From the IMG/VR virus record IMGVR_UViG_2529292726_000026: a stretch of DNA of 3,346 nucleotides. One strand, given 5' to 3'. Under the pieces are notes generated by a model, which was not told the origin of the DNA, made no database searches, and saw nothing but the letters and a program-made list of their open reading frames with translations. Of this stretch, positions 1 to 3,346 are shown piece after piece. How positions within the stretch are numbered: the first letter of the stretch is position 1; each line of letters begins with the position of its first letter. A program made the position numbers and the translations under genes. This DNA comes from a virus (Duplodnaviria; Heunggongvirae; Uroviricota; Caudoviricetes).

Positions 1-612
1 ATGGCAGCAGTAAAAATCTCAGGTGTGCTGAAAGATGGTGCGGGAAAACCAATACAGAACTGCACTATTCAACTGAAGGCAAAGCGTAACAGCACCACGG
101 TACTGGTGAACACGGTGGCCTCTGAAAATCCGGATGAAGCCGGGCGTTACAGCATGGATGTTGAGCATGGCCAGTACAGCGTCACCCTGCTGGTTGAAGG
201 TTTTCCGCCTTCACATGCCGGAACCATTACCGTCTATGAAGGTTCCAGACCAGGTACGCTGAATGATTTTCTCGGTGCCATGACGGAAGATGATGTCATG
301 CCGGAGGCATTGCGTCGTTTTGAGGCAATGGTGGAAGAAGCGGCACGCAACGCCGAAGCCGCCTCTCAGAGCGCAGCGGCGGCAAAGAAATCCGAAACTG
401 CAGCGGCATCATCGAAGAACGCGGCGAAAACCTCAGAAACGAATGCAGCTAACAGCGCACAGGCGGCAGCGTCCTCGCAGACTGCATCGGCAAACTCCGC
501 GACAGCAGCCAAAAAATCAGAAACCAACGCGAAAAACAGCGAGACAGCCGCAAAGACGAGCGAAACCAACGCAAAGTCCAGCCAGACGGCAGCGAAGACC
601 AGCGAAACGTAA
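1..612 (+). CDS. stf: Side tail fibre protein, N-terminal fragment (lambda Stf-like proximal domain followed by Ala/Ser/Thr-rich fibre repeats); ends at TAA 610-612
   Basis: Seen: ATG at 1, open in frame 1 to TAA 610-612. The first ~110 aa (MAAVKISGVLKDGAGKPIQNCTIQLKAKRNSTTVLVNTVASENPDEAGRYSMDVEHGQYSVTLLVEGFPPSHAGTITVYEGSRPGTLNDFL...) closely match the N-terminus of lambda Stf as recalled from memory. From about aa 120 onward the product is low-complexity KTSETNAK / AAKSSQ-type repeats typical of the Stf family. The length (203 aa) is far too short for a fibre, so this is a fragment. Confidence 0.8.
   Translation: MAAVKISGVLKDGAGKPIQNCTIQLKAKRNSTTVLVNTVASENPDEAGRYSMDVEHGQYSVTLLVEGFPPSHAGTITVYEGSRPGTLNDFLGAMTEDDVMPEALRRFEAMVEEAARNAEAASQSAAAAKKSETAAASSKNAAKTSETNAANSAQAAASSQTASANSATAAKKSETNAKNSETAAKTSETNAKSSQTAAKTSET
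553..608 (+). repeat. 56-bp direct repeat, copy 1 (55/56 identical to 747-802)
   Basis: Seen: aagacgagcgaaaccaacgcaaagtccagccagacggcagcgaagaccagcgaaac. The single mismatch is c567 versus t761. Read in frame 1 it encodes KTSETNAKSSQTAAKTSET. Confidence 0.9.
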
Positions 613-614
613 GC

Positions 615-2354
615 GTGCAGCAAGAACCAGTATTGACGGCGAAAAATAGCCAGAATGCAGCAGCCGAAAGCGAGAGCGCGTCAGCCGGTTCTGCGACTGC
701 AGCAGCTGGATCAGCAACTGCTGCGGCTAACAGCCAGAAAGCAGCGAAGACGAGCGAAACTAACGCAAAGTCCAGCCAGACGGCAGCGAAGACCAGCGAA
801 ACAAATGCCAAAGCCAGCGAAACTGCGGCGAAAAGCAGTCAGGATGCAGCAGCCGAAAGCGAGAGTGCTGCAGCTGGTTCTGCAAGTGCGGCGGCTGCTT
901 CTGCCACTGCATCAGCAAACAGTCAAAAAGCTGCAAAAACCAGTGAAACCAATGCAAAGACAAGCGAGACTGCAGCGGCGAACTCGGCGCAAGCATCGGC
1001 AGCAAGCCAGACAGCAGCTAAAGCAAGTGAGGATGCAGCCAGAGAGTATGCAAGCCAGGCAGCAGAGCCGTATAAATATGTCTTACAGCCACTGCCTGAT
1101 GTGTGGATACCGTTTAACGATTCACTGGATATGCTTGCTGGCTTTTCGCCTGGTTATAAGCAAATAACTGTAGGTGATGATGTTATTAAAATGCCATCCG
1201 ATAAGGTTGTTAGCTTCAAACGCGCATCAGGTGCAACATACATTAATAAATCAGGTGTATTAACCGTTGCTGAAGTTGACGAACCGCGATTTGAACGAGA
1301 AGGTTTGCTGATTGAAGGACAGAGAACAAACTATTTCAGAAATTCAAATACACCAGAAGCATGGAATAACACGGGTAGTGTGTCTGTTGAGTCGTTCGAC
1401 AGTGATAAGGGGTTTAACTATGGAAGGATAACTGTTATTAATGAAAATCCGACAGCACAAGGATATCAGGCAATTGCTGTAAACACGAATGATGCTTACA
1501 CCTGCCCGGCAGGTTCTTATACGACGATATCGTGTCTGACGAAAAGTGATAATTCCCGGTGTCGTGCAAGGTTCGGAAAAATGTCTGATAATGGTGCGTT
1601 TGTTTTTCATTCAGATGCAGCTCTGGATCCTGTTACGGGAAATGTTGTTCATGGAAATAATGTGACGGTGACGGCAGAAAGAGTCGGTGAATGGTGGTTG
1701 TTTACCGCCACTCTTTTTGCAGATGCGGAAATGATAATCAGCTCAAGATTTGAAATCCTGGCGATGCCTGGAATCAGTATTATCCCCAATGGCTCTACGT
1801 TAGATATTGCGATGCCTCAGGCGGAGATTGGGTCGTACAGGACGTCATTTATCATTACTGAAGGGGCTCCTGGCACTCGCTCCAGCGACATGGTGACAAT
1901 ACCTGTAAGAAACAATATTCACCGATTACCATTCAGTGCTCTTGTTGAAGTTAATAAAAACTGGGATATCCCTCCCAGCAAATCACCATTAATCTTTAAT
2001 GTTAAAGATTATCAGGAAAATGGTCTGTTCACGCATGGATTCCGTGGTAATAATTTCTCTGATGCCGGTTCTCCTTTTATTTCTATGGGAGGGTGTAATA
2101 AATATGTGGCAACAACCCAGAGGAAAATCATTTCAGGCTTCCGTTGTGGCGCTGATGGAGATGTTCAGGCCGTATGTAATGGTGAATTATCTGTTGCGGC
2201 AAAAACAACATGGACTTCAATTGTTCCACGGGCAGTATTGCGAATTGGAGGGCAGGGCACTAATGGGGAGTATCATCTTTTTGGTCATATCCGTAATCTG
2301 CGTATCTGGCATAAAGAATTAACTGATGCGCAAATGGGGGAGAGTATTAAATGA
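615..2354 (+). CDS. Side tail fibre protein, C-terminal fragment (fibre repeats, then distal receptor-binding region with LamG/ConA-like C-terminus); start codon uncertain
   Basis: Seen: frame 3 is open from upstream of 615 to TGA 2352-2354. Translation from about 640 continues the same repeat family as the first fragment (AKNSQNAAAESES...NSQKAAKTSETNAK). No ATG or convincing Shine-Dalgarno precedes it; GTG 615 is simply the first possible start, 2 nt after the upstream stop. The C-terminal residues (...GEYHLFGHIRNLRIWHKELTDAQMGESIK) resemble the terminal strand motif of LamG/concanavalin-A-like lectin domains (recalled motif, not searched). Confidence 0.7.
   Translation: MQQEPVLTAKNSQNAAAESESASAGSATAAAGSATAAANSQKAAKTSETNAKSSQTAAKTSETNAKASETAAKSSQDAAAESESAAAGSASAAAASATASANSQKAAKTSETNAKTSETAAANSAQASAASQTAAKASEDAAREYASQAAEPYKYVLQPLPDVWIPFNDSLDMLAGFSPGYKQITVGDDVIKMPSDKVVSFKRASGATYINKSGVLTVAEVDEPRFEREGLLIEGQRTNYFRNSNTPEAWNNTGSVSVESFDSDKGFNYGRITVINENPTAQGYQAIAVNTNDAYTCPAGSYTTISCLTKSDNSRCRARFGKMSDNGAFVFHSDAALDPVTGNVVHGNNVTVTAERVGEWWLFTATLFADAEMIISSRFEILAMPGISIIPNGSTLDIAMPQAEIGSYRTSFIITEGAPGTRSSDMVTIPVRNNIHRLPFSALVEVNKNWDIPPSKSPLIFNVKDYQENGLFTHGFRGNNFSDAGSPFISMGGCNKYVATTQRKIISGFRCGADGDVQAVCNGELSVAAKTTWTSIVPRAVLRIGGQGTNGEYHLFGHIRNLRIWHKELTDAQMGESIK
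747..802 (+). repeat. 56-bp direct repeat, copy 2 (55/56 identical to 553-608)
   Basis: Seen: aagacgagcgaaactaacgcaaagtccagccagacggcagcgaagaccagcgaaac. Read in frame 3 it encodes the same peptide as copy 1. Confidence 0.9.
2336..2344 (+). promoter_or_regulatory. Shine-Dalgarno (GGGGGAGAG) for ORF 2351-2632, inside the 3' end of the fibre gene
   Basis: Seen: purine-rich GGAG core at 2339-2342, 8 nt before ATG 2351; the stop and start overlap (ATGA). Confidence 0.6.
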
Positions 2355-2632
2355 AAGATTTAACACTCAAATTTGCAGACAGGGCCGACTTTTCGGCCTT
2401 TATGGAGAGTATTGGCTATTATGATGACGAGTCGATGCAGGATGATATTCTTATTGACGTGATAGGTAACGTGTACAAAGAAACCGGAGAACTGACTGAA
2501 GATGGCGAACCGGTATGTGTTAAGGAAGACGGATATTTTGTAAACGTGCGCATCATTAATGATGCAAAAAAATCGTCAATATTCGATAAATACGCGGTTG
2601 TTGTTGAGCATCAACTTCGTGGCTGGATGTGA
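2351..2632 (+). CDS. Hypothetical small acidic protein (93 aa), translationally coupled to the tail fibre gene
   Basis: Seen: ATG 2351-2353 overlaps the fibre stop TGA 2352-2354 (ATGA). A GGGGGAGAG Shine-Dalgarno lies at 2336-2344, about 8 nt upstream. Open to TGA 2630-2632. The product is Asp/Glu-rich with no family I recognise. Position between two fibre-related genes suggests a structural or assembly role (inference). Confidence 0.65.
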   Translation: MKDLTLKFADRADFSAFMESIGYYDDESMQDDILIDVIGNVYKETGELTEDGEPVCVKEDGYFVNVRIINDAKKSSIFDKYAVVVEHQLRGWM

Positions 2633-2638
2633 GGGAGA
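2631..2638 (+). promoter_or_regulatory. Shine-Dalgarno (GAGGGAGA) for ORF 2642-3346
   Basis: Seen: GGAG core at 2634-2637, 4 nt before ATG 2642; overlaps the TGA stop (2630-2632) of the upstream ORF. Confidence 0.6.
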
Positions 2639-2641
2639 CAA

Positions 2642-3346
2642 ATGGCTACATCGACAGTAATTCCAGGAGATATCACCACGCTAAAGGGAGATGTCAGTAA
2701 AACTAAGGAAGATATTTCCTCAATTAACGGAAAAGTATCAACGCTTCAGACTGATATGACCAGTGCAAAGCAGGATATCAGCACCAGATACACAAAAACT
2801 GAAGTTGATAATAAGCTGAAAAACAAACTGGAAGTGAATGCTCTGGAAAGCGGTAATTATGGTGGAGATTTTTACCCGCTGACTGGCCGTGAAGCATTTT
2901 ATTTATGGAATTTGGGCACGACTACAGCGGCGGCAAACCTTTATCTTAATCCTGACCCTGCAATTTCGTCTGTACTGCGGTCAACATCGTCTATTCGCTA
3001 TAAACATTCAGTAGAGACGATAGATTCAGAGCACGCCGATCTCATTTTCAGGATGCGCCCTGTGTGGTACAGGTCGCAATGCGAAAATGACAGGCGTGAC
3101 TGGGGATTCTATGGATTGATTGCCGAGGAAGTAGGAGAAATTGCCCCTCAGTTTGTTCACTGGCGACCAGCTAACGAAGATGATGCACCGGAAACCATTT
3201 CCAGCAATGGCCTTGTTGCCGAAGGTGTAATGTACGAACGTCTGGTTGTTCCACTGATTCACCATATCCAGAAACTGACTGAAAGAGTTGATGAACTTGA
3301 GTCAGAATTAAAGTTGTTATTAACTTCCCGAAGCGATATTAGATAA
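2642..3346 (+). CDS. Tail fibre domain-containing protein with C-terminal peptidase S74 intramolecular chaperone domain (234 aa)
   Basis: Seen: ATG 2642 preceded by GAGGGAGA (2631-2638), which overlaps the upstream stop; open to TAA 3344-3346. The N-terminal ~65 aa are heptad-like and polar (GDITTLKGDVSKTKEDISSINGKVSTLQTDMTSAKQDIS...). The C-terminal ~110 aa (SSIRYKHSVETIDSEHADLIFRMRPVWYRS...GFYGLIAEEVGEIAPQFVH...NGLVAEGVMYERLVVPLIHHIQKLTERVDELESEL) follow the recalled S74 / endosialidase-chaperone pattern, including a Ser-x4-Lys dyad at S116 and K121. Confidence 0.85.
   Translation: MATSTVIPGDITTLKGDVSKTKEDISSINGKVSTLQTDMTSAKQDISTRYTKTEVDNKLKNKLEVNALESGNYGGDFYPLTGREAFYLWNLGTTTAAANLYLNPDPAISSVLRSTSSIRYKHSVETIDSEHADLIFRMRPVWYRSQCENDRRDWGFYGLIAEEVGEIAPQFVHWRPANEDDAPETISSNGLVAEGVMYERLVVPLIHHIQKLTERVDELESELKLLLTSRSDIR
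2987..3316 (+). other. Peptidase S74 (intramolecular chaperone, auto-cleaving) domain within CDS 2642-3346; putative catalytic Ser codon 2987-2989, Lys codon 3002-3004
   Basis: Motif-level comparison to endosialidase C-terminal chaperone domains (catalytic Ser-Lys dyad in an SDRRLK-like context; here SSIRYK), followed by a GLIAQEV-like segment (here GLIAEEVGEIAPQFV) and a C-terminal helix. Domain boundaries are approximate. Confidence 0.7.

Follow-up and report, generated by a model that had tools for sequence, protein, structure and literature searches.

A small acidic protein encoded directly after LamG-type fibre tips is a candidate tip partner in phages from coliphages to cyanophages

The small gene and the fibre genes around it

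The DNA analysed here, a stretch of 3,346 nucleotides (nt) from the Caudoviricetes record IMGVR_UViG_2529292726_000026 of IMG/VR (the window), forms the distal part of a tail operon of the lambdoid type. It carries a side tail fibre gene (stf), a short second fibre gene and, between them, a small open reading frame (ORF) for an acidic protein of 93 amino acids (aa), which is the subject of this study (Table 1). Our results link this small gene to the receptor-binding tip of the fibre encoded upstream.

The ATG of the small ORF (2351-2353) overlaps the TGA of the fibre ORF (2352-2354) as ATGA, and a Shine-Dalgarno site lies 8 nt before it, near the 3' end of the fibre coding sequence. A second such site overlaps the TGA of the small ORF (2630-2632) and stands 4 nt ahead of the next ATG, at 2642. 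The overlap, the two sites buried in neighbouring coding sequences and the strong acidity of the product had been pointed out in a preliminary description of the window, and all of them hold. The protein contains 20 Asp and Glu residues against 10 Lys and Arg, with an isoelectric point of 4.31 and a net charge of about -10, and the isoelectric points of all relatives examined fall between 4.0 and 4.4. No promoter was found on the + strand of the window and no terminator-like site at the small ORF, nor does the protein sequence, as read, contain a signal peptide or a membrane segment.

The small ORF is a real gene under purifying selection and not a chance reading frame, since its product matches PHROG 1361 over the full length (residues 1-93 against profile positions 1-92 of 92, E 1e-46), occurs in 186 phage records by tblastn, and has evolved with a ratio of non-synonymous to synonymous substitution (dN/dS) of ~0.28, as estimated from 723 pairs among 40 distinct prophage alleles. 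Close relatives, with at least 84% identity, are plentiful in prophages of E. coli, and distant ones (27-53% identity) are spread across many cultured phages, so that conservation can be traced down to ~27%. A scan of 1.84 billion cluster representatives returned 99 at E<=1e-3, including an environmental branch that corresponds to PHROG 18574. This remote branch matches the models of both PHROG 1361 and PHROG 18574, and the two branches align by hhalign at 99.8%; VOG7707 and FIG00639828 are further labels for them in record annotations. The consensus of the remote branch is M-x-D-L-Y-L-K-F ... D-x-I-G ... G-Y-H-V-N-x-R-V ... P-x-T-P-x-R-V-W-A. Membership of the superfamily was defined by common motifs and a length of 85-125 aa, and the protein of the window has both, its motifs being M-x-D-L-x-L-K-F, D-x-I-G, G-Y/W-H/F-V-N-x-R and a C-terminal P-x-R-x-W.

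The preliminary description saw no recognisable family in this protein and no likeness to lambda Tfa. For characterised families this stands, as searches of Pfam and NCBIfam gave no match at E<=1, Tfa included; it does not stand for uncharacterised ones, given the full-length membership of PHROG 1361 and the remote relatives in PHROG 18574. PHROG 1361 is annotated as 'unknown function', and we found no described function, structure or publication for either PHROG. The function of the small protein is not mentioned in the literature on DT57C, BASEL (2021 and 2025), BF23, Hf4s, Sf11, Bil/SECphi27 and AKFV33, and the Ur-lambda paper does not mention Tfa. The records examined label the protein 'hypothetical protein', except the RefSeq record of IrisVonRoten, which names it 'tail fiber protein'.

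AlphaFold2, run on an alignment of 57 sequences, models the small protein as a compact alpha/beta domain, with a score of 83 for the predicted local distance difference test (pLDDT) and a predicted template modelling (pTM) score of 0.70. Comparison of this model with known structures gave no convincing fold relative, and a sequence search of the PDB returned nothing for the small protein and nothing for the fibre tip. Confidence falls toward the C-terminus, where residues 81-90 average ~71 and the last three lie below 50, and L89, R90 and W92 are nearly invariant despite this low pLDDT. A tail that is conserved yet poorly modelled would be typical of a region that binds a partner.

The location of the small gene between two fibre genes, as first described, agrees with the positions, with the qualification that the upstream gene is broken in the window. 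In this copy stf is interrupted by a stop codon and by the frame change that a scrambled stretch introduces inside the 21/42-nt tandem repeats of the shaft. Prophages 99% identical to the window (e.g. NZ_CP019029) have an intact stf gene of 782 aa, and the break reflects either a decaying prophage or an artefact of assembly or sequencing within the repeat. The frame that remains after the break has an NF048003 GTA_spike_fiber domain at residues 232-423. The guanine-cytosine (GC) content drops from 0.54-0.55 over positions 1-1088 to 0.41-0.44 from position 1089, where the motif PLPDVWIPF marks the start of the tip, and it remains low across the small ORF and the second fibre gene. This step suggests that tip, small ORF and second fibre were acquired together, and it is consistent with an imported cassette.

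Table 1. Coordinates of genes and signals in the 3,346-nt window
Feature	Coordinates	Strand	Evidence or remark
Lambda-Stf-type side tail fibre, N-terminal fragment (tail-attachment domain)	1..612	+	PF08400 phage_tail_N, E 1e-67; TAA at 610-612
Scrambled stretch of ~25 nt, net +5 nt, breaking the stf frame	597..636	+	aligned to an intact E. coli prophage copy
Remaining stf frame: Ala/Ser/Thr-rich shaft repeats, then receptor-binding tip	615..2354	+	phrog_1419 tail protein, E 1e-241
Portable tip module, ~421 aa	1089..2354	+	identity profile; GC drop at boundary
Shine-Dalgarno site of the small ORF, GGGGGAGAG, within the fibre coding sequence	2336..2344	+	direct reading
Small ORF: 93-aa acidic protein, 10.7 kDa, PHROG 1361 member	2351..2632	+	
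Shine-Dalgarno site GAGGGAG of the downstream fibre gene	2631..2637	+	direct reading
Short second fibre, 234 aa	2642..3346	+	C-terminal S74 domain: PF13884 at aa 116-172, E 5e-6
N-terminal peptide of the second fibre, ~20-26 aa (MATSTVIPGDITTLKGDVSK...), presumed docking module	2642..2719	+	

Linkage of the small gene to the LamG-type tip

In a set of 95 loci, made up of 80 prophage contigs from IMG/VR, 6 phage records, 5 further viral contigs, 3 GTDB genomes and the window, the small gene directly follows a large fibre ORF in every case, with an overlap of 1 or 4 nt or, in locus L060, flush with it. The fibre ends that are intact in this set carry ...IWHK-x-LTD-x-Q..., and the fibre ORF of L060 stops short of this motif. 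Over the ~110 loci collected overall, the small gene starts 0-4 nt from the fibre stop, and every readable fibre end is the same LamG-type tip, the truncated L060 being the one exception. These junctions fit the co-translation with the fibre for which the preliminary description argued, and the spread of the gene over diverse phages bears out conservation in related tail modules. Of the two neighbours that it named, LamG-tipped fibres accompany the homologues wherever the fibre end is readable, save in L060, and S74 proteins do so only sometimes.

The same arrangement is found in Hanrivervirus KarlJaspers, Seuratvirus VogelGryff, the T5-like phages IrisVonRoten and AKFV33 (in the latter the fibre stop and the GTG of the small gene are adjacent), the rV5-like CarlMeissner, Warwickvirus tinuso, Dhillonvirus rolling, the classical lambdoid phages 21 and Lambda_ev203, the Aeromonas myophage 14AhydR10PP, the Synechococcus cyanomyophage S-WAM2 and metagenomic contigs with remote relatives of the small protein; T1-like phages are also among the carriers. 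Some records named as Campylobacter phage (MG0656xx) or Listeria phage (OR84xxxx) hold fibre cassettes of the E. coli-phage type, rV5- or T5-like, with up to 100% identity, and these labels probably reflect contamination or mis-assignment.

The tip that these loci have in common is conserved over its first ~90 aa (PLPDVWIPFNDSLDM...FEREGLLIEGQRTN) and its last ~40 aa (RIGGQ..HLFGHIRNLRIWHKELTDAQ), and its middle consists of hypervariable jelly-roll domains resembling those of GTA head spike fibres. Its C-terminal domain is of the LamG type, as indicated by a weak match to PF13385 (Laminin_G_3) on the homologous tips of L096 and L110, and ends in the motif ...LFGH-x-RN-x-RIWH-x-x-LTD-x-Q.... 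Against the 186 phage records with the small protein stand 218 with the tip, and the two breakdowns by genus nearly match, with five Aeromonas records each. The N-termini of the fibres vary with the phage backbone (lambda Stf, T5 Ltf, rV5-type, Drexler and Dhillon types), and the tip and the small gene are common to all of them. Within the rV5-like phages, the gp41 allele of rV5 has neither tip nor small gene, and the allele of CarlMeissner and FFH2 has both. Judged from these comparisons, tip and small gene move as a unit between phage backbones. The co-variation between the small protein and segments of the tip was weak and mixed with the effect of physical linkage, so that no interface could be placed from it.

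The gene that follows is variable. In lambdoid phages, Drexlerviridae, Seuratvirus, T5-like phages and one remote prophage it encodes a fibre of 224-586 aa with an S74 domain; in phage 21, mEp460 and Lambda_ev203, a 95-aa membrane protein; in environmental contigs, holin-like proteins, a repressor, a Gly-rich fibre or another LamG-type fibre; and in rV5-like phages the small gene is followed by a terminator. The second fibre is absent from phage 21, mEp460, Lambda_ev203, rV5-like phages, S-WAM2, the Aeromonas phage and the loci L095, L096 and L098. Since the downstream gene varies in this way, the invariant partner is the upstream tip and not the second fibre. A small protein specific to the second, S74-bearing fibre can be ruled out, as many loci do without that fibre. 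Taken together, we consider it very likely that the small protein is functionally tied to the upstream fibre.

Two environmental contigs (L097, 448-1197; L109, 336-1448) have a further LamG-type fibre gene after the small gene, a possible sign that such tips can form tandem arrays. In lambdoid phages the cassette is closed, just beyond the end of the window, by a conserved membrane protein of 95-99 aa (L004, 5292-5579; L001, 7369-7668; L103, 7352-7639; L105, 3292-3585), with two predicted transmembrane segments according to the annotation of phage 21.

In the window, the second fibre begins with a conserved peptide, continues with a coiled coil and a small distal part, and closes with an S74 intramolecular chaperone domain; it matches the C-terminus of the L-shaped fibre of DT57C (8hqz, E 2e-7). 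Should the S74 domain (around SSIRYK, from aa 116 onward) be cut off, as happens in other S74 proteins, only ~115 residues would be left as the mature second fibre. GenBank names for such fibres include 'chaperone of endosialidase' and 'putative lateral tail fiber chaperone'. The N-terminal peptide, M-A/V-T-x-T-V/N-I-P-x-D-I-x-x-L-K, is common to distal fibres that are otherwise unrelated, of 234 and 346 aa and, in the T-shaped Gp24 of IrisVonRoten, 574 aa; it begins at 6292 in L001, 6289 in L002, 5292 in L005 and ~5270 in L006. All phages in which it was found have the small protein as well, which suggests a docking module that is also a recombination junction, and by this distribution the peptide seems to depend on the small protein and not the reverse. 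In the 2025 BASEL paper (PMC11990801) the long proximal fibre of IrisVonRoten, with which Gp24 connects, goes by the name 'Gp23'. By locus tag, however, the long fibre is encoded by bas32_0022, and bas32_0023 (L002, 6001-6279) is the gene of the small protein, of 92 aa.

Possible roles of the small protein

Most trimeric phage fibres need a chaperone, which is either intramolecular, as in S74 fibres, or separate, as with Tfa-like proteins. Fibre chaperones are treated further in PMC10579305 and PMC9608196, and modules of a fibre and its cognate chaperone are common to distant phage families (PMC10579305). In the lambdoid genomes it is the small ORF that fills the exact position of tfa, behind a LamG-tipped fibre that has neither tfa nor S74; the second fibre carries its own S74 chaperone, and these cassettes hold no other chaperone gene. 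Because the LamG-tipped fibre lacks S74 and tfa, and because the small ORF is its only other constant companion gene, we favour, at about an even chance, the reading of the small protein as an assembly chaperone made by translational coupling, or as a retained partner, of the LamG-type tip. The coupled start, the lack of regulatory signals of its own, the strictly virulent phages among the carriers and the conserved, poorly ordered C-terminal tail all fit this reading.

According to this model, translation would be coupled at the fibre stop codon (through ATGA in the window), and owing to this coupled start an acidic alpha/beta protein of ~10 kDa would be made in step with each fibre chain. 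It would most likely bind the conserved platform of the tip, perhaps by way of its C-terminal P-x-R-x-W tail, and help the tip to fold or trimerise, a task that lambda Tfa or the intramolecular S74 chaperone takes on for other fibres. The protein may remain on the tip after assembly, where it could also help to seat a distal fibre. Physical binding to the tip, chaperone activity and presence in the virion are what we infer from these comparisons. A broader version would make the small protein a new and ancient class of tip partner with no relation to Tfa, the fibre chaperones of T4 or the intramolecular chaperones (IMC), a partner which LamG tips from coliphages to cyanophages require, which stays on the mature tip and which, in enteric siphophages, forms the socket for the ~20-aa peptide of the distal fibre, giving a three-part plug-and-play cassette for host range. 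We hold this broader version to be speculative and rather doubtful.

The preliminary description regarded an assembly factor, an adaptor and an unrelated cargo gene as inseparable from the sequence. The comparative data now make cargo unlikely and favour the assembly factor over the adaptor. As a structural connector, the small protein would be a virion component joining a distal or branch fibre, through the N-terminal peptide, to the LamG-tipped proximal fibre, much as small connectors do at the hinge of the T4 long tail fibre. The order fibre, small ORF, fibre, with gaps of 9-12 nt, in lambdoid phages, Drexlerviridae, Dhillonvirus, Seuratvirus, T5-like phages and one remote prophage is in keeping with such a role, as is the restriction of the peptide to phages with the small protein. 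The remainder of Gp24 of IrisVonRoten (residues 27-69) is internal to the single-chain LtfA of DT57C, the BASEL authors assume that Gp24 hangs on the proximal fibre (PMC11990801), and branched fibres are established for DT57C (PMC4728585). However, a connector would be expected only where two fibres must join, and the small protein is kept with all its motifs in phage 21, mEp460, rV5-like phages, the Aeromonas phage, S-WAM2 and environmental contigs, where there is no second fibre. In addition, the S74 fibre of the remote three-gene locus L107 has an N-terminus without the peptide motif, and DT57C branches its fibre without any such protein. We thus regard a connector as the main rival reading, yet as rather unlikely to be the primary function; such a role could be secondary, added to a primary one.

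The only proteomics found, that of AKFV33, covered four large gel bands, which cannot reveal a 10-kDa protein (PMC3326045). In this phage (L104) the tip fibre, ORF137 (869-3223), has a predicted mass of 83.1 kDa against 95.8 kDa on sodium dodecyl sulphate polyacrylamide gel electrophoresis (PMC3326045). The small protein, ORF136 (3224-3490), has 10.1 kDa, and the difference in the size of ORF137 happens to equal one small protein; the discrepancy is probably a gel error.

It is much less probable that the small protein is a free-standing, degenerate PKD or Ig-like accessory domain which decorates the tip and binds glycans weakly. This idea comes from matches of the family profile to giant planctomycete-type proteins with PKD_4 repeats (P0188, P0194, P0203 and others), with E down to 1e-20 over 8 repeats; Pfam confirms PKD_4 in those proteins, and hhalign against the repeat units gives 86% probability (E 4.7e-6, 71 columns). 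Nevertheless, a PKD sandwich could not accommodate the helices predicted at residues 11-32 and the AlphaFold2 model is alpha/beta, the Pfam PKD models match no member of the small-protein family, and fold searches return no Ig or PKD structures. The similarity is probably spurious, a convergence at the level of motifs or composition.

Least probable is an unrelated cargo gene, or moron, for superinfection exclusion, receptor blocking or anti-defence. A small and very acidic protein could act as a DNA mimic like Ocr or ArdA, and exclusion genes often adjoin receptor-binding genes, as llp does the pb5 gene of T5, and cor and lom occur in lambdoid phages; but the strict linkage of the small gene to the tip, without which it never occurs, its lack of a promoter or terminator of its own and its presence in virulent T1-, T5- and rV5-like phages and in cyanophages argue strongly against such a function, PADLOC gives no match at E<=1, the lack of a signal peptide and of any membrane segment rules out action at the envelope, and a late-operon position with translational coupling is unsuited to an early anti-defence role. 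The 95-99-aa membrane protein at the end of the lambdoid cassette is a better candidate for a moron or exclusion gene.

The O-antigen or glycan hosts within reach of many model and therapeutic coliphages are determined by lateral fibres with a LamG-type tip, and the carriers include Bas06, Bas17, Bas25, Bas32 and Bas48 of BASEL, SECphi27, AKFV33, phage 21 and many E. coli prophages. Should tip assembly or the attachment of a distal fibre require the small protein, tip swaps in host-range engineering must include the small gene. Structural models of these fibres would then lack one subunit, and a new family would be added to the short list of fibre chaperones. The gene is widespread and conserved from coliphages to cyanophages, and its role is directly testable in genetically tractable phages.

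Comparison with known fibre accessory systems

The Tfa proteins of lambda and of Mu and P2 (Caudo_TAP) are encoded directly after the side tail fibre gene, in the same operon, and travel with the C-terminal tip of the fibre when tips are exchanged. The small ORF, in the tfa slot, agrees with them in gene position and co-inheritance. It differs in that the small protein has no sequence match to Tfa or Caudo_TAP, in its length (93 aa against ~190 aa), in its predicted alpha/beta fold and in its client, the tip here being of the LamG type and not of the lambda or T4 gp37 type. The free-standing IMC-like chaperones of the Alteromonas phages V22 and A5 (PMC10579305) offer a similar parallel, a portable module of a fibre and its cognate chaperone with the chaperone encoded directly after the fibre. 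These chaperones have ~176 aa and are IMC-like, whereas the small protein has neither a Peptidase_S74 sequence nor an IMC-like fold, and the S74 domain of the window belongs to the next gene.

The LtfA and LtfB fibres of DT57C (PMC4728585, PMC10713586) and the hinge connectors of T4 resemble the present cassette as tandem fibre proteins in which a distal or branch fibre is presumed to dock on a proximal one, and the second fibre of the window shares its S74 C-terminus with the DT57C fibre. In DT57C, however, there is no small ORF between ltfA and ltfB and LtfA ends in S74 instead of LamG, and the small protein is also present in phages without a second fibre. By analogy, the small protein would work most like the Tfa-type or the free-standing IMC-like chaperones, yet it departs from both in sequence and fold. 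We rate it as a fibre accessory protein of a new family, one that has already been clustered as an unannotated PHROG.

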